Assembly: GCA_000004985.1 (NCBI GenBank)
Contig: GG738907.1
Direction: 5' to 3' (one strand)
DNA from: Naegleria gruberi
Taxonomy: Eukaryota
DNA: 64,000 bases
Shown here: positions 653 through 64,000 of the stretch, in pieces
How positions within the stretch are numbered: position 1 is the stretch's first letter
Layout: each line of letters starts with the position of its first letter
Notes under the pieces: generated by a model
The model's input: the letters and a program-made list of their open reading frames with translations, nothing else
The model's database searches: none
What the model was told of the DNA's origin: nothing
Translations under genes and position numbers: made by a program

Positions 653-2929
653 TTAATAAGATTCAATAACTTGTGATAAATTCAAATCAGATAAAGCAAC
701 AGTATCAATATAACCATCATATTTGGTATTAATTAAATGTAAGAATATGACCAAAGCATAAAAAACGTTATTTCTTCCAGGTTGACATTCATATAAATTA
801 CCATCATCTTCAACATTGTAATGTGAAATGCTAACTTTTGATTTACATAAATACAATCCCTTCTTTACAGGTACTTGTTTATCTAAACCTCTCTTCTTTT
901 TCATTGCATTTGCAACACCTGGTGCTAACATATTTCTATTTCTAAATAAATTGTGTGGATTTTCCTTCTTTTCAATATTTTGATCACAATAATACTTGTT
1001 TGAAAATTGACTTGAATGTCCATGTGAATCCAAAGTAAAATCCATAAATTTACAAAATAAATTAACAATAATTTCTTCATCTGTTGGATAAATTTCTTGT
1101 TCATATAAAAATTGTTCTGAATTATTTAACATTGGACGTGAATTTGGTTTTTCAAATTGACCTTTTGACATTGAACGTATTCTATCAATAACATATTTTC
1201 TACATGCAATTTTATCTGTTGAATCAAATAAATTTAAATTTGGAATTGATAAATAACGTTCCAATCTTAATCTTCTTCTTAATAAATTTCCAAATTCAAC
1301 ATTTTTTTGTTGATTTGTTTGTGGTTGTGATTGATTAAAACCATTTGAAAATCCAAAACCAGAATTAAAACCACCACCAACACCACCAATACCTCCATTC
1401 AAATTATTTGATTGTTGTTGTTGATCAATTTGTGTTACCAATGTTGCTAAAACATATTTCAATGTAAATTTTGAAGTATCTTCAGTGTGTGGAATTGAAT
1501 TTGGAATTGAATGTTGATATTCAGGTGAAATATCAAGTGGATTAAATGAATCATAACCTTTAAAATCACAATTAAATTGAATTGTCTTGTGCATTTGTAA
1601 ATTAATTGAATCAATTTCTTTAATTGTTGGAATTAAAACTCCATAAATCATCCATTTTCTCATATTTTCAGACCAATTATTAACTGTAAATGTTGTTAAA
1701 TTTAACATTTCTAATGCTTGTGATGCTTGTTCACCTAATAATAATGCATTACCAGAATATTGTTGATTTAATTGTTGATTTAATTGTTCATGATTTAAAA
1801 TAAAATCTTCATTAATTTGATTAGAAGGTGCTCTTCTATATTCTAATTTACCTGAATTTGAATCAAAAACAGATAATCCAATACTTGGATTTATATTAAA
1901 TTGAAGTGCAACTTGTGTTGGTTGTAATTGAAGTGATTGTTGTTCTTGTTGTTGTTCTTGTAATGATGAATTATATAAATAGGAAGATGTAGATATAGAT
2001 GATGGATCATACATCATATTATTCATCATCATCATGTTATTATTATAAACACCACCCATCATATTAGTATTCATATTCATATTATTAATATTCATATTAT
2101 TAATATTCATATTAGTATTCATATTCATATTATTAGATTCATCCATACTAAATATTAAATCATAATTAACAGTATTATTTTTATCCTTTTTTAATAATTG
2201 TTCTTGTTTTGAACGTTCTTGTTCTTGTTTTAAATATTCTTGATATAAAAAGTAATCATAATCATTAATTTCTTCCTTATTTTTTAATCCTAATAAAGCA
2301 TGTCTATTAGATAAATAATCAAATTGATTCATTTCATTAATTAAATCAACATTGTGTTGTTCATGATTAATTTGTCTATTTCCTAATAAAACATTTTTAA
2401 AATGTTTAAAAATTCTTTTACATTGTTTTAAAGGTGATTTTAAAAATTCAAATAAAAATTTGTAAAATTTAGATGAAAAATAAGTTTTAAAAAAAGGTTT
2501 TACCTTCTTTGGATTATTTAATAAATAATTAATTCTTTTAATAATATATATTAATAATAATAAACAAATAGTATATGTTATTAAATAATATAATATTAAT
2601 GATGATAATATATACTTTCTAATAAAAATTTTAAATATATTTGTATGTATCATTACAAAGAATAATAATAAAAATAAAGATAATTGTATTAATGAATTCC
2701 ATGATTGTTGAATATATTGTTCATGTTGATAGGCTAAATTTCTAACCTTGTATAAACTATCTAAATGATCAACTGGTTGTATTCCGTAAGAAGTTTGATT
2801 TGTTGTTGTTGTTGTTGTTGTTGTTGTTGATGAATTTTTATTGTTGCGTTGTTCATCAGTGTCATCTTGTTGTTGTTGTTTTGATGAAGGTGAATGACCT
2901 TTTAAAAGTGTGGAAAGAAATTGCAACAT
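653..2929 (-). CDS. membrane protein with two predicted TM helices and a long low-complexity region (Asn/Met/Gln repeats); possibly TMEM209-like, which is uncertain
   Basis: Long minus-strand ORF. The real ATG is at 2929-2927 in aaaaaaaaATG context; the ORF-track start at 2965 is a TTG. Two hydrophobic segments follow the N-terminal region (LSLFLLLFFVMIH and LLLLIYIIK). The C-terminal 250 aa are complex, non-repetitive sequence. Confidence 0.55.
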   Translation of the reverse strand: MLQFLSTLLKGHSPSSKQQQQDDTDEQRNNKNSSTTTTTTTTTNQTSYGIQPVDHLDSLYKVRNLAYQHEQYIQQSWNSLIQLSLFLLLFFVMIHTNIFKIFIRKYILSSLILYYLITYTICLLLLIYIIKRINYLLNNPKKVKPFFKTYFSSKFYKFLFEFLKSPLKQCKRIFKHFKNVLLGNRQINHEQHNVDLINEMNQFDYLSNRHALLGLKNKEEINDYDYFLYQEYLKQEQERSKQEQLLKKDKNNTVNYDLIFSMDESNNMNMNTNMNINNMNINNMNMNTNMMGGVYNNNMMMMNNMMYDPSSISTSSYLYNSSLQEQQQEQQSLQLQPTQVALQFNINPSIGLSVFDSNSGKLEYRRAPSNQINEDFILNHEQLNQQLNQQYSGNALLLGEQASQALEMLNLTTFTVNNWSENMRKWMIYGVLIPTIKEIDSINLQMHKTIQFNCDFKGYDSFNPLDISPEYQHSIPNSIPHTEDTSKFTLKYVLATLVTQIDQQQQSNNLNGGIGGVGGGFNSGFGFSNGFNQSQPQTNQQKNVEFGNLLRRRLRLERYLSIPNLNLFDSTDKIACRKYVIDRIRSMSKGQFEKPNSRPMLNNSEQFLYEQEIYPTDEEIIVNLFCKFMDFTLDSHGHSSQFSNKYYCDQNIEKKENPHNLFRNRNMLAPGVANAMKKKRGLDKQVPVKKGLYLCKSKVSISHYNVEDDGNLYECQPGRNNVFYALVIFLHLINTKYDGYIDTVALSDLNLSQVIESY

Positions 2930-3112
2930 TTTTTTTTTCAATTTTTTAAAAATGTCTTTGAACAATTCCCTTCAACTTTAATAAAACATTTTCAATAGAA
3001 TGGAAAAAAAAAGACCAATGGAAAACACCATAAATTTCGAGCAAGGTTCTATATTAATGAATCAGAGTCACAGTTTAAATGTTTGCAATGAAATGTAGCT
3101 ATGACAAATTTA

Positions 3113-6100
3113 TTAATTTAAAAATCTTTTTAAATAATGATCTAATAATTGTCTCAATTCAATTGCTTCTTCACCATGGAAATAAGAAAGGAAGTATGAT
3201 AATTGTCCTAACCATTTCTTAATCATGTCATTATTTGATCTATTATTAAAAAGTTGTCTCTTATCACTTGTATTATTATTATTATTACTATTATTACTAT
3301 TACTATTATTATTATTATTATTAATATTATTACTATTATTATTAAAAGAAGGAAATAAAAAAATAGAACCAAATTTAAATAAAGAAATGTAAAGTAAATT
3401 TGCCAAATCAAAAATTAATTTACCAACAACATTTCCTTTTAAACCCCAAAATACTAATTCATCTGTTAAAAATCTAATATCATAATATAAAAATGTAAAT
3501 TCTTTTTGTTTTAAAATATCATTAATAATATCAATGGTAATATTTTTTGATTGTTGTTCATCTAAATTTTTTAATGATAAATAATATTCACCATATTTTC
3601 TAAATTTAGTAAGTGTAAAAACAATTGAATCTTCTAATGCATTATAAACAGGTGATGATTTTGAACCAGGTGTTGAATAAAATTGTGTAATTGATAATCC
3701 TTTTGAAAATTTAATTGTTAATAATTTCTTTTCACGTATATTATCATAATTATAAATAAATAAATGTTCTTCAATATATTTAGTTTCTATTTTTAGTAAT
3801 TCTGATAAAATTGGTTTAATTACAATTGTATGACTTGATTCAGGTGGTATTGTATATATTTTAAATTCATCTGTTGTAATATAATTATTTGTATCTACTT
3901 GTATTTTAAATAATTTACAAAAATCATCTCTAATAATATATAATAATGGTTGTTTAAATAAATTCTTTAATGTAATTGGATATTTATCTATTGTATTTCC
4001 ATTTATATCCATCATTATATTATTATCATTTCCAATAAATGTTACTTCTTGTTTTGTTAAATACATTTGTGGTTTAACACATGTTGATGTTACTTTTATC
4101 ATTCTTTGATAATCTTTAAGTAATTTACATTTAATAAATATTTCAAATTCATCTAGAAATATTTCATTATCTCCATTATTATTATTATTATTATTATTAT
4201 ATTCATTATTATTGTTATATTCATTATTGTTATTATTATTGTTATCATTATATGATGATGATGATGATGATACTTTATATAATAAATAGACACGTGTTTT
4301 AGATTTAGGTTCAACACGTAAACTATAAAATGGTTTTAATGATGTTAATGAAAGTGAAAAATGTAATTCTGTTGTTTCAATATTATGATTAGATGTAAAA
4401 AAGAATTCCAATGGTGTATCATTTGTTAAATTTACAATATCAATAAAACGATGTCTAATTAATGTATCAATAAATGCTGTTCCTAAATTCATTTTCAAAT
4501 AATTTTCATTATTATTACTATTATTACTATTAGATGAATTATTATTATTAATAGATGTATTATTATTATTATTAGATGAATTATCATTAATTAATAAAGA
4601 TTCATCATTACCATCAACTCTAATATCAAATAATTTTTCAGGATCTTCAATTTCACTTAAAATTTCCAAACTTGTTCTCAAAGTTTTAAAATCCAATGGA
4701 TTATTTAAATTTTCAATAACAATATAATCAGTAAAACTTTCAATACTATCAGTTTTAAATGTAAATGTTATTTGATGTGAATCAAATTGATCAATTAAAC
4801 CACTTGTATGACTAATTTTAAATGGTGATGATTGTGTATTAATTTTACCTGATATAGAAAATATTCTATATTTAACATCTTGTGGTGTTGGATTTTCTAA
4901 TGTTATTTTACTTTCAACTATTTTACTTGATAATGTTCTACGATGTCTCAATTCAATTTCATATCTATTCTTTTTATCTATTTGTCTACATCCTTTTAAT
5001 ATTAATATACTTGAATTATTTGTTGTATTATTTGTATTATTTGTATTTGTATTAGTAGTAGTAGTAGATGTATTGGTATTGGTTATATTAGCAGCACTAC
5101 CTCCAGGACTATTACTACTATTTAGAGGAGTTGGTGTACTTGATTCCAAATTTGATAATGTTGGTGTTGGTGTTGTCAATATATCAACACTTGTACTTCC
5201 ACTATTCAAAGTATTATTACTAATATTATTATTATTAATATTAATATTACTATCAATAGTTAAAGATTTAAAATAATCAACTGCTTTAACATTTAAATGT
5301 ATAGATTGAGTAGTTAATGGAGCATTATCATCAATAACAGATAATTGACAATATTTTCTCAATAATGAAAGTTTTTCCAATACTTGTTCTCTATCTTGTA
5401 TAGATGAATAATCAATAAAAACGCTAATAACAGTTGATAAAGCAGGTTCTAATAAACCCTTTTCAGGAAATATAGTAATATTAATACCATCTAAATTAAT
5501 AGTTGAATCATTTACATCTTGAAAATTATTAGTTGAAAATGTAAAGAATTGTTTCTTAATTTTAAAATATAAAGCTTCATATTTCTTTACATTTTTAATT
5601 GTAAATGATTCTGATAATGTTCTTGTTGATTCAAAATAATTATTTGGTAATTTAAAATCTAATTTTTCTAATGAAAGTGAAAATGAAGGATATTGTACAA
5701 TACTTCCAAATATATCAAATACTTCTTTTGGTTGATTTGAAGATTCAAATATAAATTTACCAAAATGAATTAATTTTAAATCATTTAAATCTTGATTTGG
5801 TGAATTAATTTGTGAATATAATTCTTGTGGTATTGTTGAATTTTGTTTAGCTCTACATCTAATTCTAATATATAATGTTGATTTCTTTTCAAATTTATAT
5901 TCTTTAATTGGCATACTTGTTGAAAAATCTAATAAATCTATTTTTAAAAATTGACAAATTCTTGGATTATCAAAAATTACTTTAAATTTTGAATCAATTT
6001 TAAAAGAACTATTATTACCAATAGAAAGTGTTAAATCACTTATAGATGAAAATAATGTTGGTGATTTCATAATTTCTGGATATTGAAGTGGTGGCATTCT

Positions 6101-6160
6101 AATTGTTGTTGTATTTGTTAATCCTGTAAAATCCCAAACACATTGTGTTATATTTGCCAT
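3113..6160 (-). CDS. giant multi-ASH/PapD-like repeat protein, C-terminal segment (segment 4 of 4)
   Basis: 1015-codon ORF ending at stop 3113. It contains I/L-x-F-G beta-sandwich repeat motifs (IHFGKFIF...) and Asn/Thr low-complexity linkers. Its reading frame is open upstream of the ORF-track M and overlaps the end of the 6238..8586 ORF in a different frame. Confidence 0.6.
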   Translation of the reverse strand: MANITQCVWDFTGLTNTTTIRMPPLQYPEIMKSPTLFSSISDLTLSIGNNSSFKIDSKFKVIFDNPRICQFLKIDLLDFSTSMPIKEYKFEKKSTLYIRIRCRAKQNSTIPQELYSQINSPNQDLNDLKLIHFGKFIFESSNQPKEVFDIFGSIVQYPSFSLSLEKLDFKLPNNYFESTRTLSESFTIKNVKKYEALYFKIKKQFFTFSTNNFQDVNDSTINLDGINITIFPEKGLLEPALSTVISVFIDYSSIQDREQVLEKLSLLRKYCQLSVIDDNAPLTTQSIHLNVKAVDYFKSLTIDSNININNNNISNNTLNSGSTSVDILTTPTPTLSNLESSTPTPLNSSNSPGGSAANITNTNTSTTTTNTNTNNTNNTTNNSSILILKGCRQIDKKNRYEIELRHRRTLSSKIVESKITLENPTPQDVKYRIFSISGKINTQSSPFKISHTSGLIDQFDSHQITFTFKTDSIESFTDYIVIENLNNPLDFKTLRTSLEILSEIEDPEKLFDIRVDGNDESLLINDNSSNNNNNTSINNNNSSNSNNSNNNENYLKMNLGTAFIDTLIRHRFIDIVNLTNDTPLEFFFTSNHNIETTELHFSLSLTSLKPFYSLRVEPKSKTRVYLLYKVSSSSSSYNDNNNNNNNEYNNNNEYNNNNNNNNGDNEIFLDEFEIFIKCKLLKDYQRMIKVTSTCVKPQMYLTKQEVTFIGNDNNIMMDINGNTIDKYPITLKNLFKQPLLYIIRDDFCKLFKIQVDTNNYITTDEFKIYTIPPESSHTIVIKPILSELLKIETKYIEEHLFIYNYDNIREKKLLTIKFSKGLSITQFYSTPGSKSSPVYNALEDSIVFTLTKFRKYGEYYLSLKNLDEQQSKNITIDIINDILKQKEFTFLYYDIRFLTDELVFWGLKGNVVGKLIFDLANLLYISLFKFGSIFLFPSFNNNSNNINNNNNNSNSNNSNNNNNTSDKRQLFNNRSNNDMIKKWLGQLSYFLSYFHGEEAIELRQLLDHYLKRFLN

Positions 6161-6237
6161 TATTGTTACATTTAATATATTATTAGGATTATTAATATTT
6201 TCAAATTGAAGTGAAAGTGAAAGTAAATTATCATTTT

Positions 6238-8586
6238 CTAATAAATTATTAGAATATTATTATTAGAAAAATTATTAAAATCTTTAAATTCACTTGTTTT
6301 TAAAATACAAATAATAGTTTTTTGTCCTTTAGGTGGAATGGTCCATTTTGTTCTACTACTCATTTCATTACTATTATTACTACTATTACTACTATTACCA
6401 GGACTATTAGTAGATAATGTTGGTGATGATTGATCAAAGTGTTGTAATAAATTCATAGTTGTTGTTGAAGTAGTAGAACCACCACCACCAGATGATGTTG
6501 GTGTGATTGGACTCATTGAAGAATAATTTGAAACAAATTCAATTCCTTTTGGTTTTGAAATTAATTTAACTTTTGATAAAACATCTGAATGATCATTATT
6601 TAAAACTATTTGAAATTTTCTATCAGACCATTTATCAATATAACCAATTTTACCTAAATTAATTGTATTTGATCTTAATGAAACTTCAGAAATACCCATT
6701 TGAATATGAACATTAATTAATTTTAATGCTCGTTGTTCATCATCTGATAAAATTAAAGATCTTTGAAGTTCAACATAATTCTTTTTCAATAAATTTTCAG
6801 TTTCATTATCATTCATTGTTAAAGGTAGACCTGATAACATTGTTACAAGTGTTAATTGTTCACCTGCAGGTAAAATGAATGGTTTACCCTTATTTGGATA
6901 TTGTGTAAATGAATTAAATTGTTTAATTCTTTCTAATTTTTCAATTGAATTTAAAGATGATAATTGTTTAGATTTTTGTTTTTTAACAAATACAATCATA
7001 TCAATATCACTATTAGGTATTAAAATCATATCATTTTTAGAAATGTTTGATAATTGAAATTCTTGTACACCTAATATTGTTGAATTTCTAATTTCATTTC
7101 TTAATTCTTCATCTGAATCTTGTAAATAATCATATTCTTCAACAAGTTGATTTGCTAATTTTTGTAAATGTTGATGTGGAATTCCTGTTATTTTTACAAT
7201 TTGATCATTTTCATCTTGTTCTTTAATAACATAAACATTTGAAAATACCAAAGCATCAACTCCTGAACTATCAGCTTGTAAATTATTACGTAATGATTTA
7301 CGATCATCAACAAATGCACGTATCGCTATTTTACTCACTTCACTATTATTATATGAAGATGATTTGTTTATAATTGTAAAATAATGATCATGAAGTCCAC
7401 TTGTTAATGGATTGAATGTAAATTTTAATACCTTCTTGTTATTTTCATCATCTTCATTAGATGATGTATTATTTGTAGTAGTAGTAGATAATGTATTAGT
7501 AGATGATATGTTATTAGTATTATTACTTGTTGGAATAGGACTATTAATAGGAGTATTATTATTACTATTATTATTATTATTGGAAGAATTAATTTTACAT
7601 CCAATTAAATTACCAACTCTCTCTGAATCATTATTTAAATATAATTCATTTGGTGAAGATGAAATAATTTCATATTCTAAAGGTAAGAATTGATTTCCAT
7701 TTGATAAAGTAAATTGTGAATTAAATGTTTTTAAATTACTTGACCAACCAAAATCAATAAATTGATTATCAATATTTAAAATACTTTTACCAACAAATGC
7801 TCTAATTTGAATGACTTGAGAAAATATTTGTTTTTCTTCATTTAAAACATTTAAAACAATACTACTTGAAAATGAAATACATTTACCCTTCTTTGCTAAA
7901 TTAGAATTTAAATGTGGTTTTAATCCAACATGAATAGTAATAGTTTGTTGAGGTTCTATTTTAATGATTGATTTTTCTGTTAATAAATTTTGTAAATTTT
8001 CATCTGAATAAATTAAAATTTGTTTTTTAGAATTGGAAATTAATTTCAAATTCAATGAATAATCTTTTGTATTTGTAATTTTAAAATTTGAAACTTTTGA
8101 TAAATTATCCAATATTGTTGTTGATGTTGTTGTTGTTGATGTTGGTGATAATTCTGATAAATTAGATGTTGTAGTTGTTGTTGATAAAGATGATAAAGGA
8201 TGAATATAACAAAATCCAAAATTTAAAATTCGATCTTGATTAATATTTTCAATATGAATAGGTGAATCAACTATAACTCTACATTTGATTAAACATTTGT
8301 GAATTATTTTAGTTTTTAAATCTTGAATTTGAACTGAAAATGTTTGAATTCCAGGTAAGAAATATTCGCATGTTAATTCAATAATTTCATGTTTACATGG
8401 TGCAATAGTACCATTCTTAATATTAAATTGAACTTGATAAGATTCTTGTTTTGTTGAATCTAAAATTACAAATCCTGCTTCTTCACTTTTAGATTCATTA
8501 TTAATTGTTAATTTACATTTAATCTTTTCACCAATAGAATTAACACCTAAATCAATTTCATTTGGAACAATTTGAATTGATTTCAT
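6238..8586 (-). CDS. giant multi-ASH/PapD-like repeat protein, segment 3
   Basis: 782-codon ORF with repeated ASH-like motifs (LNFGFCYIHPL, IDFGWSSNLKTFNSQFTLSNG, INLGKIGYIDKW). Its frame is open upstream into the 8789..12214 ORF region. Confidence 0.6.
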   Translation of the reverse strand: MKSIQIVPNEIDLGVNSIGEKIKCKLTINNESKSEEAGFVILDSTKQESYQVQFNIKNGTIAPCKHEIIELTCEYFLPGIQTFSVQIQDLKTKIIHKCLIKCRVIVDSPIHIENINQDRILNFGFCYIHPLSSLSTTTTTSNLSELSPTSTTTTSTTILDNLSKVSNFKITNTKDYSLNLKLISNSKKQILIYSDENLQNLLTEKSIIKIEPQQTITIHVGLKPHLNSNLAKKGKCISFSSSIVLNVLNEEKQIFSQVIQIRAFVGKSILNIDNQFIDFGWSSNLKTFNSQFTLSNGNQFLPLEYEIISSSPNELYLNNDSERVGNLIGCKINSSNNNNNSNNNTPINSPIPTSNNTNNISSTNTLSTTTTNNTSSNEDDENNKKVLKFTFNPLTSGLHDHYFTIINKSSSYNNSEVSKIAIRAFVDDRKSLRNNLQADSSGVDALVFSNVYVIKEQDENDQIVKITGIPHQHLQKLANQLVEEYDYLQDSDEELRNEIRNSTILGVQEFQLSNISKNDMILIPNSDIDMIVFVKKQKSKQLSSLNSIEKLERIKQFNSFTQYPNKGKPFILPAGEQLTLVTMLSGLPLTMNDNETENLLKKNYVELQRSLILSDDEQRALKLINVHIQMGISEVSLRSNTINLGKIGYIDKWSDRKFQIVLNNDHSDVLSKVKLISKPKGIEFVSNYSSMSPITPTSSGGGGSTTSTTTMNLLQHFDQSSPTLSTNSPGNSSNSSNNSNEMSSRTKWTIPPKGQKTIICILKTSEFKDFNNFSNNNILIIY

Positions 8587-8788
8587 TGTTGTTGTTGTTA
8601 ATGATGATGATTGATTACTATTAATTAATTTTGTTACTGATTTGTTATTGTTTGGTATTAATAATTTTGATATGGTTGATTTGTGTAATGATGATATATT
8701 ATTATTATTAGTATTATTAGTATTAAATGTAGTACCAGTTGTTATTGTTGCAGTATTGTTATTAGAATTATTTGTAAGGGTAGTATTA

Positions 8789-11700
8789 TTAGTAGTACCA
8801 ATGGTAGTAGTAGCTACTACTATATAAAGGTGTTAATGGAGTACTAACATTTGAACCTGTTGAACTACTACTACCACTGTTTTGAGTAAAATTCTGGAAT
8901 GATTTGATATCGAAATGTACAATAGAACTCAGAGTGACCATCTTTTGTTCATCTGTATTTCTATTTTCATAAACTAACATTCTACATATACCATTCTCAA
9001 ATGCAATATTTGGTGTTTCTATTAATAGTGGTTTAATCTTTAAATTAATAACTTGAGACATTCTAGGTGGAATTGAAAATCTAATTCCATTCTCTTCAAT
9101 CTTTTTGAATTTTCTTTGTTTTTTACCTTCATCATCTGATTCAGAAACAAATAATGAATCTTCAATATTATTAGTAGTAGAATTACCTGTTATTGTTGTT
9201 GCAATAGTTGGAGTATAATCATCAAAATTTAATTCCTTTTTAATTTCATTAATTCTTTCAGTTAATTTTTTAATTTTTGATGACTTGTTCTTTCTAACAC
9301 AAATTCTATATTTGTGTTCTAATTTTTCTAATTCTGCTTCTAATTTTTCAATTTCAGTACTTTGACTAACTTGTTCCAATTCATATTCAAATTCAAATTT
9401 ACAAAAACTAAAACTACAATAATCAATTTGTGTTTCAAATATTCTTCTATTCTTACTCATATTTGTAACAACAATTTTTTTAGAAAGTGAAAATTGATTC
9501 AATAAAATATTTCCAAAATTAATATCATTAGATTTCAATGTAAATTTTTCATAATTTCTAATATCTGCCTTTACAATAATATTAATACTATCAGATTCAT
9601 CAAGTACATTTTCAAATGTTAAAGTTTCATTAAATACACCTGGTAATGATGGTTTAAAATAGAGTTGAATATCACGTGAACCATATGGTCTTACTAAACC
9701 ACACCATGATAAATTTAATGAATCATCTAACATGTCTAATATTTTAATATCATTAGATGCAATTGAACCTGATCTTTTTATACGAAATAATAATGGTACT
9801 TCAGATCCATTTGAAATGGTTATTGTCTTTTTACGATCTTCTACATTGGTAATGGATCCAAAATTTATATTCTTTTGTGCAATTTCCATCATGGATTGAC
9901 AAATTTTAGATTGAATTGTTAATTCTCTAGGTGGTAATGTAAAATCTGTTTGTTCATTATTTGTATCATAATCTATTAATTCAATAAATAATTTTTCAAA
10001 ATTCTTTTTAATTGCATTCATTGAATTTGTATTATTATTATTGGTATTATTAGTATTGATATTACTACTACCAGTAGTAGTTGTAGATGAAATAGATGTA
10101 GTAGTGTTTGTTGAAATATTATTGAATGAAAAATCACTGTATAAAGATAGAGGTGAAGAATTATTTAAATTAATTGAAGTAAATTTGCTATTTGTACTTT
10201 TTGGTCGATAGGTAATGTAAATTTCAGTTGAACTTGTTGGTCCAATTGAAATTGTGTCACATGGAATGAGAAATTTCAAATCATCAATTGAATTTGAAAG
10301 TTTCTTTTTAAATTCCAATTCATCTCTAATAATCATTTCTTCATCAACATTTTGTGTAGTATCAAATAAAGATTCTTGAATTTTTTCATAAGTTGAAACT
10401 AATTGATCACAATATTCTTGTGGATTAACTTGTTCAGTAAATAATTCATCTGTTACTGATGAATATTCACTATCATCAATCATTAAATTATCATCACTTC
10501 CATCACTGGTTTCATCACTATCATAAATACTCAGTGGTGTTTTTAATTCATCAATACCTTCAAAATGATGAATATTTAACTTTGAAACGTTGGGTTGAGT
10601 CATTATTGATTGTAAATATTCTAAATTTGTTGGATCATTTAATTGTGAAATAAATTTATCATCCATTGATGTTGATCTCTTCAAGGTATTTGATGATTCA
10701 TCCTTCAACTTTTTAAGATAGGGTGATTTTGGTGTGAGTACTGATGAAACACCTGTATTATTAGTACTTGCACTATTATTTGATGTTGTTGTTATGGTAC
10801 TCAATGAAGAAAGTGGTGTTAAATTAGATTGACTTGAAACTCTTTGTAAATTTGAAGTTACAATTTGTTTAACCTTCTTTTTTCTTCTTTTATGAAGAGG
10901 TGGTGGTGTTGATTTAAATTGTTGTTCACTTTCATTCATACTACTATCATCTGTAAATTGTCGATTATTTGTTGTTGTTGTACTACTGTGTGGACTTATT
11001 GTATCATCTTCATCAAAATGATGATGCTGATGAACATTGGATGAAATTAAATTGTAATGATCAGATTGTGAACCACCACCACCACCACCAGATGAATAAT
11101 CCTGATTTGTTATTGTTGTCGTTCTTTTAACTTTAAAAGTTGAAATTTCATTTGGAGATGAAGATTTAAATTTCAATGTAATTGGTTCATCTGAAATGTT
11201 TGAAATTTGAAATTTAGAAAGTGAAATGCCATTCAAAGCAACAACACCAAAATTAATTGATTTTGCAAAATTATGTTGTGAAGTAGTATGTACATCATAA
11301 TATTTACAATGAAAATTTAACATATTTCTATCAATATTATTAGATTCAACTTCAATAATTTGTTCATTCAATTTGTTACTTTCATTTACAATTGTAATTT
11401 GTTTTCTATAATTTGGATTAACTCTTCTAGGTGATAATCTAAATGTAATTCTAATAAATTTATGAGGTGAAATAATTGCTGATTTTGTTTTACATGTTAT
11501 TACTTTAGATGTAAATTGAACTGAAATTCTTGTTGCCAAATCAGATCTATTATAAATTGTTACTGATGCAAATTTAATATCTCCAATGGTTGAATCTCCA
11601 AATTTAATATTAGAAGGTGATACTTCAATAATAGATGTACATGTATGTGCAATAGCTTTAATACTTGCAACTACATTCATTGTATTAGAACTATTATTAT

Positions 11701-12214
11701 TATTATTGGAGGTAGTATTTGTTGATAATAATTGATCATTCATCATTATGGATGATGTATTTGATGATGCTGATGATGTATCAATAGCACTTGTTGTATT
11801 AGCAGAAGTATTTGAAGCACTATTAGTAGTATTACCACTGCTACTACTACTATTACTACTACTTGTACCACCACTCTTCTTACATGTGATTAGAATGGTA
11901 TTCTTTGATTTGGTGACTGAAGTATCTGTAGTGAGTGAATTTTCATCCAATTTAACATGAGCACAAACCATTATCTTTCTTTCAGCTTTAGGTTTAAGTG
12001 AAATTTCTTGAATTCTTTCTCTATAAATTTGTTGAGTATTTGGTAGACAAGTTGAATTGAAATGTGGATTTGAATGATCCATTGAAAGTAAAAAATCATG
12101 TAAATTTGGATCATACAATTCAAAATGAATAAAATCAACATTTTCATGATTATTATGAGAATGTTGATGATGGTGATGATGATGAAAACCATGTTGTTCA
12201 TTATTTCCAATCAC
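8789..12214 (-). CDS. giant multi-ASH/PapD-like repeat protein, segment 2
   Basis: 1141-codon ORF. The ORF-track start is a GTG, not a real start, and the frame stays open upstream. It has many repeats of the pattern I-x-F-G-x(10-14)-I/V-x-I/V-x-N-x-S (IKFGDSTIGDIKFASVTIYNRS, INFGVVALNGISLSKFQISNIS, INFGSITNVEDRKKTITISNGS, INFGNILLNQFSLSKKIVVTNMS), separated by Ser/Thr/Asn linkers and poly-His. Confidence 0.6.
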   Translation of the reverse strand: MIGNNEQHGFHHHHHHQHSHNNHENVDFIHFELYDPNLHDFLLSMDHSNPHFNSTCLPNTQQIYRERIQEISLKPKAERKIMVCAHVKLDENSLTTDTSVTKSKNTILITCKKSGGTSSSNSSSSSGNTTNSASNTSANTTSAIDTSSASSNTSSIMMNDQLLSTNTTSNNNNNSSNTMNVVASIKAIAHTCTSIIEVSPSNIKFGDSTIGDIKFASVTIYNRSDLATRISVQFTSKVITCKTKSAIISPHKFIRITFRLSPRRVNPNYRKQITIVNESNKLNEQIIEVESNNIDRNMLNFHCKYYDVHTTSQHNFAKSINFGVVALNGISLSKFQISNISDEPITLKFKSSSPNEISTFKVKRTTTITNQDYSSGGGGGGSQSDHYNLISSNVHQHHHFDEDDTISPHSSTTTTNNRQFTDDSSMNESEQQFKSTPPPLHKRRKKKVKQIVTSNLQRVSSQSNLTPLSSLSTITTTSNNSASTNNTGVSSVLTPKSPYLKKLKDESSNTLKRSTSMDDKFISQLNDPTNLEYLQSIMTQPNVSKLNIHHFEGIDELKTPLSIYDSDETSDGSDDNLMIDDSEYSSVTDELFTEQVNPQEYCDQLVSTYEKIQESLFDTTQNVDEEMIIRDELEFKKKLSNSIDDLKFLIPCDTISIGPTSSTEIYITYRPKSTNSKFTSINLNNSSPLSLYSDFSFNNISTNTTTSISSTTTTGSSNINTNNTNNNNTNSMNAIKKNFEKLFIELIDYDTNNEQTDFTLPPRELTIQSKICQSMMEIAQKNINFGSITNVEDRKKTITISNGSEVPLLFRIKRSGSIASNDIKILDMLDDSLNLSWCGLVRPYGSRDIQLYFKPSLPGVFNETLTFENVLDESDSINIIVKADIRNYEKFTLKSNDINFGNILLNQFSLSKKIVVTNMSKNRRIFETQIDYCSFSFCKFEFEYELEQVSQSTEIEKLEAELEKLEHKYRICVRKNKSSKIKKLTERINEIKKELNFDDYTPTIATTITGNSTTNNIEDSLFVSESDDEGKKQRKFKKIEENGIRFSIPPRMSQVINLKIKPLLIETPNIAFENGICRMLVYENRNTDEQKMVTLSSIVHFDIKSFQNFTQNSGSSSSTGSNVSTPLTPLYSSSYYYHWYY

Positions 12215-12236
12215 TGTACTTGTATTACTACTACCA

Positions 12237-13496
12237 CTACCAATTGTTATTGTTATTACTACTATTACTACTATTATTATTATTACTATTATTATTATTA
12301 GAATTATTAGAATTACTAGTCAATCCAAAAAAAACATCAAAAGTATCAGTACTACTTTGATTTCTTAAAGTAATTAATTTAAAAGAAGTTTGACCTTTAA
12401 AAAATTCACCAAAATCTAATTTTGAAATTGTTTGTTTACCAAATTCATCTAAAATTAAAATATTTCTAATTGTATTTAAACCAATTAATTGATTATTTTC
12501 AAATTCAGTTGAAAAAACAATTGATTTAATAATTAAATTTGATAAAATTTCATTATTAAATTGTAAATTAACATTTAAATTAATTTCACCAATAATTTTA
12601 GGTATAAAAATAACGTTAACTCTCATTGAAGAATGTGCCATAATTAAATTATCCATTTTTAATATTTTACCTGTTTCATATTCTGTAAATGTTAAATCTG
12701 CAATAAAATTTTCATTTTCTTGTAAAATTTCTTTAATTGGATTTGAACTTGATCTATTTCTATTTATATTTGAAATTGAATTTTTAATATTTACATTTGA
12801 ATTTGAAATTAAATTAAAATAAACATTTTCTTCTGAAGTATTATAAATTGTAAATTCTTTAACATATTTACGATTAATTATTGAACTTCCAATTTCAATT
12901 TCATTTTCATCAATTTTAATTTTAGATTCATTTAATTGTATTATAAATGGTAATTTAATTTTATCAAAATTTTGTAATGTTATTAAATCTAATATAATAT
13001 TTCCATTTAAAGAATGTAATAAATTATTTTCATTTTTAGTTGATTTTAAATTAATTTTAAATATATTATTTTTATATTTTTTAATTGTTAATTGTTGTAA
13101 ATTATATAATGTATTAAATAATTGATTAGAAAATTCATCATTTTCAAATGTTTGAAATGAAATTAAAGTTTGTTGACTTGATAATCTAATTACTAAATCA
13201 TTTGATGTATGATTTTCAATTTTTATAATTTTAGATGAATTTTCTCTTGAATTTTTAAATATGATCGGATCATTAATAATTGTTGTATTTAAATTTAAAT
13301 TTAATTTTACAATTATTCTTTCTTCTATTGTTGTGTTATTATTATTATTAACAGATTGAATGACTTCCTTGATGAGAATATATTCTTCAGTGTCGTCATC
13401 TAATTGTTGTTGTTGCTCCGTATTGTCCATTGTCGTCATCACAGTCATAATATTATTATTACTAGTGGACAAGGACGAAGGAGATGTGGAGGACAT
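12237..13496 (-). CDS. giant multi-ASH/PapD-like repeat protein, N-terminal segment carrying the start codon
   Basis: ATG at 13496-13494 in aaaaaaaaATG context. 419 codons with an ASH-like repeat (LDFGEFFKGQTSFKLITLRNQSS). It ends in a poly-Asn tract whose stop overlaps the next ORF in another frame. Confidence 0.6.
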   Translation of the reverse strand: MSSTSPSSLSTSNNNIMTVMTTMDNTEQQQQLDDDTEEYILIKEVIQSVNNNNNTTIEERIIVKLNLNLNTTIINDPIIFKNSRENSSKIIKIENHTSNDLVIRLSSQQTLISFQTFENDEFSNQLFNTLYNLQQLTIKKYKNNIFKINLKSTKNENNLLHSLNGNIILDLITLQNFDKIKLPFIIQLNESKIKIDENEIEIGSSIINRKYVKEFTIYNTSEENVYFNLISNSNVNIKNSISNINRNRSSSNPIKEILQENENFIADLTFTEYETGKILKMDNLIMAHSSMRVNVIFIPKIIGEINLNVNLQFNNEILSNLIIKSIVFSTEFENNQLIGLNTIRNILILDEFGKQTISKLDFGEFFKGQTSFKLITLRNQSSTDTFDVFFGLTSNSNNSNNNNSNNNNSSNSSNNNNNW

Positions 13497-13830
13497 TTTT
13501 TTTTAATTTTAGGCTAGATGATAATATTATCATGTCATTCTGCAGTTTTGAACAAGTAAGGCACTAAACAGCAATCCAAACCTATTCAATTACTTTTCAA
13601 CAACAAAAAGATGCCGTCAGAAGCTAGTTTATACATCAATTGAACATCAGCCGAAAGGTGATGAATATTAAATAGGTTTTCATCATTGGCAAAGCAACAC
13701 TCTTTTATTAATGAGAAGGAGACAATTGTCGAGCATAAAAATGAACATCCAAGTAGAAAATTCAAGTAAAAATATTTCAAAGGCTTGAATTATGGTTTTA
13801 ATAAAAATAAAAGAAAATCCAATTCAGGAT

Positions 13831-14109
13831 TTATTCAACGCTTCTTACAGGTCTCTTATTATAATAGTCTAATAAAGTTTCATCATTTGATAATCTTTCT
13901 TCTAAATATTCTTTGAGTGTTTTAGCCTTTTCAGCTTGTCCACCAAACTTTTTCAAAATAGTGCTATCATCAAAGTTCTTTCTCAATTCACTTAACATAT
14001 CACTTTCATAAACAAATGAAATCTTTTCAGTTGTCTTTTCATCAAGGAACAATTTAGCTACTGCCCAAGCAGTTGAGAATAACCATGGTGCACGCATTAA
14101 TGTTGCCAA
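13831..14109 (-). CDS. Sec14-like (CRAL-TRIO) protein, exon 4 (C-terminal)
   Basis: Encodes LATLMRAPWLFSTAWAVAKLFLDEKTTEKISFV, the typical CRAL-TRIO C-terminal helix, up to the stop. The acceptor is ..attatag after a 42-nt intron. The ORF-track M here is really a TTG Leu codon. Confidence 0.75.
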   Translation of the reverse strand: MATLMRAPWLFSTAWAVAKLFLDEKTTEKISFVYESDMLSELRKNFDDSTILKKFGGQAEKAKTLKEYLEERLSNDETLLDYYNKRPVRSVE

Positions 14110-14151
14110 CTATAATTATTATTAATATTTAAATTTTGTAAATAAATTTAC

Positions 14152-14336
14152 CTTCAATCTTTCAGGGAAATAATTTTGACAAGTTCCAAGAATTGATTTA
14201 TCCAATTTAGTATCTACACATGATAATGACCATCCTTTATAATCAATAACAACAACAAATTTTTCTAACTTTCCACCAGTTTGTAATCTTAATTCATGGA
14301 ATGCAACTTCTAATACAAATCCAACAAGTTCTTCAA
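14152..14336 (-). CDS. Sec14-like (CRAL-TRIO) protein, exon 3
   Basis: Encodes EELVGFVLEVAFHELRLQTGGKLEKFVVVIDYKGWSLSCVDTKLDKSILGTCQNYFPERLK, the CRAL-TRIO lipid-binding core (ID-KG-S, NYPERL motifs). It is bounded by a 47-nt intron upstream and a GTAAAT donor downstream. Confidence 0.7.
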
Positions 14337-14383
14337 CTATTTTATAATATATTCAAATGATAATAGTATAATATAATACATAC

Positions 14384-14449
14384 TCAATTCATATGGCTGT
14401 AAAGTTCCTGGTACAAAGTTTGAAATTGCTAAACATAAACATGGACATC
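14384..14449 (-). CDS. Sec14-like (CRAL-TRIO) protein, exon 2
   Basis: 66-nt exon after the acceptor ..aataatag. It encodes GCPCLCLAISNFVPGTLQPYEL (compare SEC14L DRDGCPVWYDIIG) and is in phase with exon 1. Its donor is GTATGT. Confidence 0.55.
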
Positions 14450-14662
14450 CTATTATTCATAATAACAACAACAAGTATTATTAAAAACCATGATCATAGC
14501 GTCATAATGATCATCATTTTAAAATTCAATGATACCATTCGGAATAGTACAACACCAACACCAATAGTAGTAGTAATATTAGTAATAGTAGAATGATATT
14601 ATATAGTTAATATATTGAATAATAGGAATTATCAACAAACCTTCTTTATCAGAACCCATAAA

Positions 14663-14892
14663 NNNNNNNNNNNNNNNNNNNNNNNNNNNNNNNNNNNNNN
14701 NNNNNNNNNNNNNNNNNNNNNNNNNNNNNNNNNNNNNNNNNNNNNNNNNNNNNNNNNNNNNNNNNNNNNNNNNNNNNNNNNNNNNNNNNNNNNNNNNNNN
14801 NNNNNNNNNNNNNNNNNNNNNNNNNNNNNNNNNNNNNNNNNNNNNNNNNNNNNNNNNNNNNNNNNNNNNNNNNNNNNNNNNNNNNNNNNNNN
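14663..14892. other. assembly gap (N-run) inside intron 1 of the Sec14-like gene
   Basis: 230 N characters. The sequence on the two sides is near-identical (see findings). Confidence 0.95.
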
Positions 14893-14976
14893 GGAATAGT
14901 AGTACAACCAACACCAATATTAGTAGTAGAATGAATGATATTATTATATAGTTAATATATGNAATAATAGGAATTA

Positions 14977-15322
14977 TCAACAAACCTTCTTTATCAGAAC
15001 CCATAAAACATAAAAATTCTTCAAGTTTAGGAAATAATTCAACAAATCTAGTTAATTTTGATTGATCTAAATTCATTCTTTGTCTCCATCTAATTAATTC
15101 AATAATACCACTGATAGTCTTATCAACATTTCCACTGTAGGCTCTCAACCATCTAACATAAAAAACATCATCATTAACTTCAGATCTTTGCATAAAATCA
15201 TTTAATTTTGGTAAAAGATCAGCAATATCTGGATATTTAGAAGAAAGATTAGCAATGGTAAGCTTATTCTTTACTTCAACAATCAATTTTTGTTCTTCCG
15301 ATGTAAAGACGAGAGCATTCAT
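14977..15322 (-). CDS. Sec14-like (CRAL-TRIO) lipid-transfer protein, exon 1
   Basis: ATG at 15322. Encodes the CRAL-TRIO N-terminal helical region (FYVRWLRAYSGNVDKT...IRWRQ) through FMGSDKEG. A GTTTGT donor at 14976 follows a split codon. Confidence 0.7.
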
Positions 15323-15544
15323 TTTTTGATCTTTTTTTGTGTGCTTCTAAAGAGATACAATAAGATTCCGAGTACTGCGATTTAGAAGGCTTCATTAAAC
15401 TGTTGGTGTCGTCATTGGAGGACAAGAAACTTTGTAATGGTAAGGAATAATTCAAAGTAGAATCAGAATTCATAGAACTCTAGAATAATCTTAATTCCTA
15501 TTAGAAAGTGTGTTGATTATTAAGGAGTCTCATTTTTTAATATT

Positions 15545-18564: not shown

Positions 18565-19284
18565 ATGGATGTTGATAATTTCATTGATAATAGTCCTCTA
18601 ATGTCAATTGCATCTAGTCCTACATTAAAACTTATATCAGAAAATGATGATAATGAAAGAGAGGAGGAAGAATTTAATAATCTAGACCGCAATGACAATA
18701 CTTATTTAAATGTTGATGAAAATAGTATCATTGAAAGTTGTAATGCAAGTACATGTGGGGATGAATATAAGGAAGAAGAAGAAGAAACCATAGTTGAGGA
18801 AGAAGAAATACAATCGGATGATGATGATGGCGCTGGTTCACCTACTACAAGTACTAAAGGAGATATTCTTAATCAATTATTATCCGCACCAATTTCAAAT
18901 TCTTCTTTTAAGCATATAAGATTAAATCCTCAAGATTTACATTTTAATAGTAGATTATCACCCAATCATTTATATCCTCAATCATCTTCTTCATCATCAA
19001 ATACAACAAGTCCAAATAACAAATTAATTGTACTTGCTAATAATAATAAGCATAATTCTCAATCATCAACACCAATGTCATTTATGAAATCAAGTTCAAT
19101 ATATTCAAAACCAACATCAAATGCAACTTCAAGAGCAAAAAGATCTTCATCACTCTCAACTCCAACTCAATTAAATAATCATCAATTATTAGATAAACAT
19201 TCACCTCCACCTCATCATCCTCATTCTATGAATATGAATAATACAATGAATAATTCAAATAATTCATATAATAATAATAATTAA
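18565..19284 (+). CDS. acidic and Ser/Asn-rich disordered protein, or the 5' part of the next gene
   Basis: ATG-initiated 239-codon ORF. It ends TAA TAA only 8 nt before the next ATG, which is in a different frame. Confidence 0.4.
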   Translation: MDVDNFIDNSPLMSIASSPTLKLISENDDNEREEEEFNNLDRNDNTYLNVDENSIIESCNASTCGDEYKEEEEETIVEEEEIQSDDDDGAGSPTTSTKGDILNQLLSAPISNSSFKHIRLNPQDLHFNSRLSPNHLYPQSSSSSSNTTSPNNKLIVLANNNKHNSQSSTPMSFMKSSSIYSKPTSNATSRAKRSSSLSTPTQLNNHQLLDKHSPPPHHPHSMNMNNTMNNSNNSYNNNN

Positions 19285-21050: not shown

Positions 21051-21129
21051 GTAATTTATTAATTTTTATAATTTTTATATTTAATAATTTTAATTTAATT
21101 TTTATATTTTTAATTAATTTTTAAAAAAG

Positions 21130-21372
21130 AGACTATTGTGGACATTTGAAGATTTTAAAAGACATAATATATTTAATAATACAACTGTAATAACAAATCC
21201 ATTTGATTTACTTGTACAAATATTTGGAGAGGAAACAACATTAAAATTAAATTCCAAATATGAAAGTTTTAATACAGATCAAAGTTTCTTCCTTCAAGAT
21301 TCAATTCAAAGATCAAATGTTGAACAAGCAAGACAATTAATTGTATCAAAAAAGTCATCCTTTATTAAATAA
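21130..21372 (+). CDS. same gene, exon 2 (C-terminal)
   Basis: A 79-nt AT-rich intron (21051-21129) ends ..aaaaaag. Exon 2 continues in phase 0 (RLLWTFEDFKRHN...) to TAA at 21370-21372. The ORF-track M at 21136 is a TTG. Confidence 0.6.
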   Translation, partial: RLLWTFEDFKRHNIFNNTTVITNPFDLLVQIFGEETTLKLNSKYESFNTDQSFFLQDSIQRSNVEQARQLIVSKKSSFIK

Positions 21373-39123: not shown

Positions 39124-39229
39124 CTTGATAAAAATAATTTAAAAATATATTAAATAAATTAAATATAGTATTAAATATATTATTGTAAAGTATTAATAAA
39201 TATATTAAATTTGTAAATATAAAACATAC

Positions 39230-43786: not shown

Positions 43787-43958
43787 AGAAATATTCAGTG
43801 TGGTATGTAATTTCCTTTTGATCGAACATTTCTTTCCATGAGCTCTGGCTGAACTCTTCTAATGGCATGATAAAATTTAATGTGGCTTGAGACGCAGAGC
43901 TAGAAACAGTTTCGCGCAAGCAACCAAGTAAGCTAGCAGGTAATCCTGATTGTATCAT
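43698..43958 (-). CDS. same hypothetical gene, N-terminal segment
   Basis: Real ATG at 43958 in aaaaaaATG context; the ORF-track start at 43976 is a TTG. It reads MIQSGLPASLLGCLRETVSSSASQATLNFIMPLEEFSQSSWKEMFDQKEITYHTEYFYDSKEGTLMQNNILFKIF.. and then the frame breaks. Confidence 0.45.
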   Translation of the reverse strand: MIQSGLPASLLGCLRETVSSSASQATLNFIMPLEEFSQSSWKEMFDQKEITYHTEYFYDSKEGTLMQNNILFKIFQHGHRKMPYLY

Positions 43959-50913: not shown

Positions 50914-50914
50914 A

Positions 50915-56901: not shown

Positions 56902-57152
56902 TTTTTCATTATTAAGACCAAGAATGGAAGGAAGCTCATACTCTGAATACTTGTAACCACTTGTTGCTTGACAAACTTGTTTAAACTTTTGATCGGCTTC
57001 AACATAGTTCGATGAAAAGTAGTCGAGTTAATAAGTTTGGCTGTTGTTACTAATGACAACATGATGGTCATAGCCATGAGAAAGGCCATGCATGCAGTAA
57101 AAGTTGTAGCTGAAACTAACTTGTTAGTGATGATACCTCTTGAGAAGGACAT
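56856..57152 (-). CDS. same gene, N-terminal signal-peptide segment
   Basis: ATG at 57152 in aaaaaaacATG context. Encodes MSFSRGIITNKLVSATTFTACMAFLMAMTIMLSL..., a signal-peptide-like segment. It joins the main segment either by a candidate 65-nt intron (GTAACA..AAAAG) or by a frameshift. Confidence 0.45.
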   Translation of the reverse strand: MSFSRGIITNKLVSATTFTACMAFLMAMTIMLSLVTTAKLINSTTFHRTMLKPIKSLNKFVKQQVVTSIQSMSFLPFLVLIMKNCTCLHASMKNVPTC

Positions 57153-59819: not shown

Positions 59820-59890
59820 GGGGGCGAGGGGGAATCGAACCCCCGGCCACAGCTTTGGAGGCTGCGATGTTACCATTACACCACCGCCCC
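59820..59890 (-). tRNA. tRNA-Trp (anticodon CCA)
   Basis: Minus strand GGGGCGGTGGTGTAATGGTAACATCGCAGCCTCCAAAGCTGTGGCCGGGGGTTCGATTCCCCCTCGCCCCC. The acceptor stem is 7 bp with one G-U pair. A-box TGGTGTAATGG, B-box GGTTCGATTCC. Anticodon stem GCAGC/GCTGT with loop CTCCAAA, giving anticodon CCA. It is followed by TGTT. Confidence 0.85.
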
Positions 59891-61264: not shown

Positions 61265-61327
61265 AAGTTCAACAGGGGCGGTGGTGTAATGGTAACATCC
61301 AAAGCTGTGGCCGGGGGTTCGATTCCC
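61265..61327 (+). pseudogene. tRNA-Trp(CCA)-derived locus with an 8-nt internal deletion (probable tRNA pseudogene), inverted relative to the 59.8-kb copy
   Basis: Identical to the minus-strand tRNA-Trp except that GCAGCCTC is missing. That sequence is the 5' half of the anticodon stem plus two loop nt. The result is a 63-nt sequence that cannot form a cloverleaf. The 3' flank CTGTTATTTTAATTTTA and the 5' flank TTCAACA are shared with the other copy. Confidence 0.6.
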
Positions 61328-61429
61328 CCTCGCCCCCTGTTATTTTAATTTTACTCACTTAACTTTTAATGGAACAACTCGGCTTTTCAGTCTTGCAAAT
61401 AGGAACTTTCGGAATTAAAATTAAAAAAA

Positions 61430-61684: not shown

Positions 61685-61728
61685 GTAAATAATATCTGAT
61701 TTGTTTAAGAATAATTAAAAATCAAAAG

Positions 61729-62576: not shown

Positions 62577-63407
62577 TTAACATCTTTGACTACACTTATT
62601 GAGTGGTGATTTTGAATCATGGAATAGGAAATGCATGGTTGAGAAGATGGAAAGTGCACTTTCGTTTTTCATGCATTCCTCTGAACAAAAGTTTTTACAA
62701 AAGAGAGCTGGGACGAAAGGTCCTTCCCATTGACCAAGTGGCCAACACTTTTGGAAATGATGAGTAAAGAATAAAATAGCAGAGACAAAACCATCATTAC
62801 CATACATTGGAACAACTGGCAAGAGAGTCAAACTACTCTTTGTCATTGTCGGATGATTCAGTAAATTGAGCCCATAATGCCTTCCCATCCCCGTTAGACA
62901 AGATCCTTTCGTATAGGATTTTTGTTGAGCTTGTGTTTCTGTGAGTGGAATCTCAACAGGTCTTTGACTATTTGGTGCTAAAATCAAACGATCACCAATT
63001 AAACCTCCAGAATGATCAAAAGCTCCAGAACATGCAAAGGAGGGATCACGAGTTGCAATTTCAATTTGATATTCTTGGTGTCCAACTTTGTGCCAGTACA
63101 ATTCTTGAGTGTTTTCATGAATTCTTGCTCCAAAACCAGATAATTGACCTGCTTTGGTGTAATAGACAACAACTCGATCATTGATAAAGCCATAGCCGAG
63201 ACCAGGGACGCATGCACCGTTATCAGTTTCGATTGGTTTAGACCACTTGGATGTGTACATGGCAGTTGTCAAATTCAATGGAATAGGACTCTTACTGAAG
63301 AAGGTGTGTTGCAAACGATCACCCAATCCAATAAATGAACCAGATGATTGTTCTGAAAGTACAACAGAAACAATCAAGACGAATATCAGAAGAATCACCT
63401 TGCACAT
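62577..63407 (-). CDS. secreted cysteine-containing hypothetical protein
   Basis: ATG at 63407 in aaaaaaaATG context. Signal peptide MCKVILLIFVLIVSVVLS. 276 aa with about 14 Cys. No family recognised. Confidence 0.55.
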   Translation of the reverse strand: MCKVILLIFVLIVSVVLSEQSSGSFIGLGDRLQHTFFSKSPIPLNLTTAMYTSKWSKPIETDNGACVPGLGYGFINDRVVVYYTKAGQLSGFGARIHENTQELYWHKVGHQEYQIEIATRDPSFACSGAFDHSGGLIGDRLILAPNSQRPVEIPLTETQAQQKSYTKGSCLTGMGRHYGLNLLNHPTMTKSSLTLLPVVPMYGNDGFVSAILFFTHHFQKCWPLGQWEGPFVPALFCKNFCSEECMKNESALSIFSTMHFLFHDSKSPLNKCSQRC

Positions 63408-64000
63408 TTTTTTCAATAAGATAACGATTCTCAAAATGAGTAGGTCCAAAATAGAACCAGGAGTTGAAGTGACAGTCCTTCCTCTGGATGTTTCACATTC
63501 GATTATTACAAAAAATTTGTAAACTAACTTGGTTGTCTATTACAAAGAGTTTAAACATTTACTTTACAATTTATTTAATTATCTAACCCACAACCATCCC
63601 ATCAAAACACCATTTATAGGCATTGGGTTGTAACAACGGTAGTAATAAACACCAGTTCCTTACCATGAGGTTTTCCATCATAGGAACCACATTGAGAATG
63701 TGTTGGTGGGATAGAAATATTTAAATGCTAATGTAATTAAACATTTATTGTAAATATAAAACAAATAAATAATTAACAACATAAAGTTGTGTTCAATTGT
63801 TGATCCAAATGACAAAAATCTATAAGTGCTAGTATATTGTACAGTTGAGCTTCACCCTTTTTGTCGTATAAAAGTAACTCTCATAAAATTCAACACCTTT
63901 GGTACTGACACATGGACACAGAATGAACAATCAACGAACGATTTATCTTTACATACTGTTGCCACTTCCGTAGTAAAATTACGAGAAATTGGTTCTATAC

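Follow-up and report, generated by a model that had tools for sequence, protein, structure and literature searches.

Frame breaks in six conserved genes of an AT-rich Naegleria gruberi scaffold region are probably single-base errors of the draft assembly

In a stretch of 64,000 nucleotides (nt) from the genome assembly of the heterolobosean Naegleria gruberi NEG-M (contig GG738907.1; hereafter the window), the coding sequences of several genes continue abruptly in another reading frame. Such breaks could be errors of the assembled sequence, introns, inactivating mutations or sites of recoding, and the question is which of these accounts for them. We counted 9-10 frame breaks in six genes: two or three in a G-alpha gene, three in a giant ASH/CFAP65-like gene, and one each in a RhoGEF gene, a DUF5578 gene, a hypothetical gene at 43 kb (the 43-kb gene) and a DUF2817 gene. 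Judged from homology and local context, these are likely to be local consensus insertion or deletion (indel) errors in the Sanger draft of NEG-M. The original prediction, made from the letters of the window, spoke of seven genes although its own list names six, with eight breaks; the one or two additional breaks lie in the N-terminal part of the G-alpha gene.

At the places where frameshifts had been claimed, we indeed found paired long open reading frames (ORFs) on the same strand, in different frames and colinear with one orthologue. The frame breaks are genuine features of the assembled sequence and not products of chance. Each of them was tested against the syntenic loci of N. fowleri and N. 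lovaniensis, and in the giant gene and the DUF5578, G-alpha and 43-kb genes the orthologues or homologues aligned flush to both sides of the breaks, with nothing missing. If ten breaks are counted, six are +1 (one base skipped) and four are -1 (one base added), and each fits a 1-nt indel. The breaks sit in runs of 2-3 nt or in low-complexity coding repeats of AAT, AGT or ACT, and none of the longest homopolymers of the window, A9 and T10, coincides with a break. The homopolymer cause named in the original prediction was therefore too strong. About one gene in four is broken within the window, and eight of the ten breaks, together with all three gaps of undetermined bases (N-gaps), fall within its first 34 kb, in the half with a GC of 22-24%. 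The positions of the breaks, gaps and reference introns are collected in the table.

Table. Frame breaks, N-gaps and genuine introns in the window, with the giant gene that contains three of the breaks. The strand is given where it applies; +1, one base skipped; -1, one base added.
Feature	Positions	Strand	Shift	Remarks
Giant ASH/CFAP65-like gene	3116-13502	-		About 3,500 codons in four reading frames; weak Ig/ASH-type Pfam matches; orthologue in N. lovaniensis
Giant gene, break 1	12237-12319	-	+1	N/S-rich repeat; single ORF in N. lovaniensis
Giant gene, break 2	8789-8832	-	+1	Between ...STPLTPLYSSS and ATTTIGTTNNTT...
Giant gene, break 3	6238-6256	-	-1	Alternative: 56-nt intron 6293-6238
DUF5578 gene (ORF pair 18565/19293), break	19281-19284	+	-1	Within TTAA, where an (AAT)n run ends
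G-alpha gene, N-terminal break 1	28447-28499	-	+1	12-residue stretch in one frame, then 15-residue stretch in the next
G-alpha gene, N-terminal break 2	28416-28474	-	+1	Shift into the frame of the following segment
G-alpha gene, break 3	28235-28283, pinpointed to 28246-28248	-	-1	From N. fowleri and Pfam alignments
RhoGEF gene, break	32712-32743	-	+1	Just past the start of the PH domain: ...LFNDMLLIVPSINNSS / NSNNSNN...
43-kb hypothetical gene, break	43709-43724	-	+1	Open interval 43698-43858, narrowed by homology
DUF2817 ("M14-like") gene, break	57024-57030	-	-1	Separates the N-terminal Met and hydrophobic anchor from the first domain residue
N-gap 1	14663-14892			Flanks are an unmerged overlap (14541-14662 = 14893-15007)
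Lone N	14962			Single undetermined base
N-gap 2	25757-25991			235 N; flanks without overlap
N-gap 3	33972-34097			126 N; inside the RhoGEF gene
DUF5578 gene, genuine intron	21051-21129	+		79 nt; GTAATT...AAAAG; 97% AT; joins the C-terminal exon
G-alpha gene, genuine intron	27679-27778	-		100 nt; GTATGT...ATAG; 97% AT; phase 1; splits DVG/GQRSERKKW
Cytochrome P450 gene, genuine intron	39124-39229	-		106 nt; GTATGT...TCAAG; 92% AT; splicing restores AGYDTSSTSLQW

The giant gene matched the N. lovaniensis protein C9374_001723 (3,562 aa) with 52% identity and 2,991 bits. Its orthologue in N. lovaniensis is a single ORF of 10,689 nt, the N. fowleri gene (3,733 aa) shows no interruption across the 2,752 codons compared, and neither sister species has an intron at any of the three break positions. 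When the N. lovaniensis protein (P0009) was aligned to the window, its residues 57-436 fell on 13277-12243 (frame -3), 425-1519 on 12247-8810 (frame -1), 1532-2383 on 8790-6280 (frame -2) and 2387-3557 on 6241-3131 (frame -1), with identities in successive segments of 45%, 56% and 48%, then 66% and 53%. N/S/T-rich repeats surround breaks 1 and 2, and both frames read sensibly up to the junction; break 1 is probably located at AAT-T-GGT near 12241-12243. Besides the two full-length orthologues, the gene has a partial model of 1,537 aa in Willaertia, and homologues occur in Mucoromycota and mosses.

The breaks of the G-alpha gene could be located by comparison with N. fowleri and with the Pfam profile. 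N. fowleri residues 47-88 aligned to 28363-28238 (frame -1) and residues 86-243 to 28247-27780 (frame -3), overlapping by 3 residues, and profile positions 4-49 and 46-191 were likewise found in different frames. At break 3 the assembly has CAAGACC where CAA-AGA-CCA (Q-R-P) is expected, so that TCA CAA GAC CAT TTT TAG stands in place of TCA CAA AGA CCA TTT TTA GAG (ISQRPFLE). The original prediction had evidently traced this break to a single homopolymer base: one A is indeed missing, but the run is A2 instead of A3. Upstream, the N-terminal low-complexity segments, including SKNNQ..., are spread over three frames. The alignment to N. fowleri suggests two +1 breaks here, or alternatively one -1 break somewhere in 28447-28474, and the two-shift model aligns better (score 302 versus 274). 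With both N-terminal breaks counted, the three breaks of this gene lie within 265 nt, which is the pattern expected from one poor read. Identity to N. fowleri is 88% before break 3 and 76% and 84% after it.

A further junction in the G-alpha gene, at 27750-27754, was rejected as a frameshift, being part of a canonical intron that is conserved in N. fowleri. Profile positions 46-191 and then 190-332 flank this intron as a clean interruption, and the conspicuous T8 run of the gene lies inside it and not at a break. This phase-1 intron in the switch II motif, between DVG and GQR, lies at one and the same position in both species, with a length of 100 nt in N. gruberi and about 116 nt in N. fowleri (within 20807-22107 of locus L002).

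In the DUF5578 gene, residues 460-625 of the N. fowleri protein P0039 (1,245 aa) aligned to the upstream ORF (frame +1, including NKLIVL) and residues 642-1166 to the downstream ORF (frame +3). A PH domain is weakly detected in the RhoGEF, and the break falls directly behind its first strands. In N. fowleri the RhoGEF is one gene of 1,256 aa adjoining the eIF6 gene, and its C-terminus, ELYASQEIEPFVE, matches the EYVASDFIDDYIE of the downstream N. gruberi ORF. For the 43-kb gene, the homologue P0047 has residues 63-137 in frame -3 and residues 142-369 in frame -1; taking one C out of GCCTT yields HRKM-LIYIKRTKQMDSG, where the closest homologue, P0041, reads GKMIVSIKQTYQDMESG. In the DUF2817 gene the evidence for the break is the alignment of the domain: the Pfam profile aligns from its position 1, three codons past the stop with which the downstream ORF opens, the only upstream Met with a hydrophobic, membrane-anchor-like segment sits in another frame, and a one-base repair joins this anchor to the domain.

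The repaired 43-kb protein (43109-43958, minus strand) belongs to a small family whose homologues of 180-370 aa share the motifs PCRSKIIE and FVVFS and an acidic C-terminus. Searches of the repaired protein against Pfam families and PDB sequences gave no match, and a CYTH/thiamine-triphosphatase-like fold, considered as a candidate, was dropped as unsupported by these searches.

It could be argued that the breaks are spliceosomal introns, very short or atypical ones which happen to be open in one frame. We calibrated the features of introns on the three unambiguous cases in the window, those of the G-alpha, P450 and DUF5578 genes, which are 79, 100 and 106 nt long, have GTATGT or GTAATT donors and contain 92-97% AT, and then enumerated all frame-restoring GT..AG pairs at each junction. 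Most junctions do have pairs by which an ORF is restored. However, their donors (such as GTGAAT, GTTATT, GTACTC and GTAACA) are poorer than the calibrated ones, and the candidate introns are mostly 31-82 nt long with 60-82% AT; the AT-rich exceptions are a 56-nt candidate with 89% AT at break 3 of the giant gene and a few low-complexity ones of 31-58 nt and 86-89% AT at break 1. Removal of any candidate would delete residues that align to orthologues or Pfam profiles. At the DUF5578 break (19281) the 130 nt upstream contain no GT, and no frame-restoring GT..AG pair was found among the candidates listed. The absence of introns from the sister species at the three breaks of the giant gene points in the same direction, and introns are a very unlikely explanation of the breaks as a group.

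All GT..AG candidates were rejected except the 56-nt one at break 3 of the giant gene (GTGAAT...TTATTAG, 6293-6238), the best candidate and retained as a minority alternative. This intron would delete SEFKD, which aligns to NEYMD and IEYMD in the sister species, and the alignment makes a frameshift the likelier reading at this position. The affected genes are thus single conserved genes whose breaks are not introns, a statement that for break 3 of the giant gene is likely and otherwise firm.

The second possibility is that the frameshifts are real in NEG-M, either as null alleles of one haplotype in a heterozygous or polyploid clonal laboratory strain or as a recent joint inactivation of neighbouring genes under relaxed selection. 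The breaks stand in the deposited reference and nothing we found directly contradicts them; several lie in the cores of conserved domains (G-alpha break 3, the 43-kb gene and DUF2817), and the part of PMC9928731 that cites Fritz-Laylin 2010 describes N. gruberi as heterozygous. Against this, in-frame stops are absent from all 6,420 codons of the affected genes. Random substitutions in these codons would produce a stop in about 5.9% of cases, and 9-10 real frameshifts would be accompanied by about 3-15 nonsense codons if substitutions exceed indels by a ratio of 5-20, the probability of finding none being about 0.04 to 4e-7. The absence of stops is compatible with base-calling errors that occur at roughly equal rates as substitutions and indels. 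Nor is conservation diminished past the breaks, the identity downstream of the first lesion being equal or higher, and ORFs of 400-1,176 codons are still open in DNA of about 22% GC. Three independent inactivating indels within 265 nt of a G-alpha gene conserved at 76-88% are implausible, the density of breaks would imply that about a quarter of all genes are broken, which conflicts with the BUSCO figures given below, and overt assembly defects occur in the same region. Unitary or recent pseudogenes are similar in that they carry frameshifts in conserved genes with intact orthologues in sister species; in contrast to them, the genes studied here lack nonsense codons, keep their conservation downstream and preserve long ORFs, and several unrelated neighbours are hit at once. 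We regard real frameshifts as unlikely. The particular form in which NEG-M, a clonal strain long propagated in the laboratory, carries a locally degenerate haplotype in this AT-rich region, intact other copies masking the many frameshift nulls (in the G-alpha, RhoGEF and giant ASH genes, for example) and the consensus capturing the broken version, is slightly more doubtful still. If the breaks were real, they would mean haplotype-specific decay in a clonal protist, and the evidence argues against this.

Recoding, by programmed +1 or -1 ribosomal frameshifting or by insertional or deletional RNA editing that restores the frame, would also reconcile broken ORFs with intact proteins. All six +1 cases have a +1 frame that reads on through the stop of the 0 frame, which makes a shift at the stop formally possible, and one site reads AAA-TAA, as in Euplotes. 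However, both directions of shift would be needed. The codons preceding the 0-frame stops differ (TGG, TAC, ATC, TAT, AAA and AAG) and share no slippery motif, and the -1 sites have no X XXY YYZ heptamer. A uniform recoding signal is excluded by the occurrence of single-base indels in both directions without a common motif. Moreover, by homology the shift at G-alpha break 3 precedes the stop by three codons or more, and judging from the homologues the shift in the 43-kb gene, too, is probably upstream of the 0-frame stop and not at it. In N. fowleri and N. lovaniensis a single frame suffices for the same proteins, and such nuclear recoding is not known in Heterolobosea. The +1 frameshifting of Euplotes at AAA-TAA or AAA-TAG resembles the present case in that many genes need a +1 shift near a 0-frame stop. 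It differs from the window, which has four -1 sites, no shared slippery codon, at least one shift off the stop and single-frame orthologues in sister species. Recoding is, of all the explanations considered, the one we find hardest to credit.

Our inference is that the real DNA lacks the breaks. They would be single-base insertion and deletion errors in the Sanger whole-genome-shotgun consensus of NEG-M, clustered where a 275-kb scaffold is unusually rich in AT, of low complexity and probably thinly covered; AT-rich DNA is under-represented in Sanger clone libraries. The underlying genes would be intact and functional, and the errors would split them into overlapping ORFs and leave truncated or missing gene models. 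What is seen in the window agrees with this: 1-nt indels, both insertions and deletions, interrupt otherwise intact conserved ORFs and are accompanied by signs of low consensus quality: there are three gaps and a lone N, and the two copies of an unmerged overlap differ by 8 mismatches and 8 indels. Near the breaks, the assembly can be shown to be unreliable. The three N-gaps of the original prediction are present, and the unmerged duplicate flanks are those of gap 1. Aligned over 123 columns, the two flanking copies show 86% identity, with 8 mismatches and 8 gap openings, the differences being concentrated in the first 55 nt or so of the right-hand contig.

The CRAL_TRIO gene at 13834-15346 (minus strand) spans this falsely gapped overlap and the lone N. 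Because of this its coding sequence is unreliable and could hide further breaks.

Several observations weigh against consensus errors. With ten indels in 64 kb, the rate of about 1.6e-4 per base is high for a draft whose Sanger coverage we take to be about 8x, and low local coverage at the breaks is an assumption. The breaks lie 1.2-5.5 kb from the nearest gap and hence not at contig ends, and two of them (in the 43-kb and DUF2817 genes) are in the better-behaved half of higher GC. The comparison with N. gruberi proteins was confined to RefSeq models derived from the same assembly. In the literature searched, which did not cover the 2010 genome paper, there was no report of frameshift errors in the N. 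gruberi assembly or of a newer version of it. The errors of low-coverage Sanger shotgun consensus sequences are alike in these respects: isolated 1-nt indels in both directions in short runs or low-complexity sequence, accompanied by N-gaps, by an ambiguous base and by contigs whose overlap is unmerged, in genes that are otherwise intact and conserved while their models are truncated or missing. The present case is unlike them in its local density of about 1.6 per 10 kb, which is above expectation for the assembly, and in being known from the assembled sequence alone.

The original prediction preferred indel errors of a draft assembly to joint pseudogenisation. Indirect, converging evidence upholds this mechanism, while neither homopolymers as its cause nor its reach across the whole genome could be sustained. 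The N. gruberi assembly has 85.7% complete and 1.3% fragmented BUSCO genes, similar to other Naegleria genomes (PMC9928731 Table 1), whereas about a quarter of the genes are broken in the window; since the BUSCO figures match those of the other genomes, the problem looks local and not genome-wide.

The predicted damage to gene models, on the other hand, was found. RefSeq XP_002671227.1 ("predicted protein [Naegleria gruberi]"; 30743-32341, minus strand) matches the ORF downstream of the RhoGEF break with 100% identity; it starts at an internal Met and covers no more of the RhoGEF than the C-terminal 533 aa. For the 43-kb gene, the match with 100% identity is XP_002671230.1, of the same description and on the same scaffold (43109-43729, minus strand; 207 aa). 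This model begins at an out-of-frame ATG, so that its first ten residues (MVIERCLIYI...) are out of frame, and it lacks the N-terminal 85 or so residues of its family. A homology search with the giant gene returned no N. gruberi protein, and the 10-kb gene appears to be unannotated in the N. gruberi reference despite its conservation across Naegleria, Willaertia, fungi and plants. With the breaks most probably an assembly artefact, the value of these results is practical, concerning annotation and not biology. For this model amoeboflagellate the NEG-M assembly continues to serve as the reference, and in this region its annotation is damaged. Such lesions can inflate the number of genes considered "absent in N. 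gruberi", of which one pangenome study lists 599 (PMC9928731).

The identity of the organism mattered for the choice of comparators. The proteins of the window place the stretch on one scaffold of N. gruberi NEG-M of 275,174 bp, and the assembly, a Sanger draft from 2010, comprises 1,977 scaffolds and has a mean GC of 35% (PMC9928731 Table 1). The GC of the window is 26.6%, and two compositional parts can be distinguished: GC is about 16-29% across the first 38 kb and about 25-35% beyond 40 kb, and long Asn/Ser/Thr-rich coding repeats mark the AT-rich part up to about 38 kb. A reference dictyostelid had been proposed for comparison; as the organism is a heterolobosean, N. fowleri and N. lovaniensis are the right comparators. 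A dictyostelid origin or contamination of the AT-rich half was also rejected: the best matches are in Naegleria and Willaertia (47-56% identity; 94% for eIF6, to the N. fowleri protein), dictyostelid matches reach only 25-30%, and the gene order agrees with that of N. fowleri and N. lovaniensis. The syntenic genes are, in their shared order, CytB561_N, the giant ASH gene, CRAL_TRIO, DUF5578, a gene of about 1,280 aa, G-alpha, eIF6 and RhoGEF. AT-rich and Asn-rich coding sequence alone is unsafe ground for assignment to dictyostelids.

Some features of the window differ from the sister loci or stand apart from the broken genes. Neither the flavokinase nor the DUF4291 gene, which in N. fowleri separate the 1,280-aa gene from G-alpha, was detected in any part of the window. 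The segment 40371-42190 (about 1.8 kb) has no ORF of at least 90 codons on either strand, and the adjacent overlapping minus-strand ORFs at 42190-42474 and 42336-42860 have odd-looking translations and no Pfam match. Between CRAL_TRIO and DUF5578, at 15524-18379 (plus strand), there is an intact gene of the molybdenum-cofactor-sulfurase type (Aminotran_5, MOSC_N and MOSC) that is not at the corresponding position in N. fowleri or N. lovaniensis. A weaker Rfam tRNA match of 41 bits, without an ARAGORN call, is located at 61275-61337 (plus strand), and a tRNA-Trp (CCA) at 59820-59890 (minus strand).

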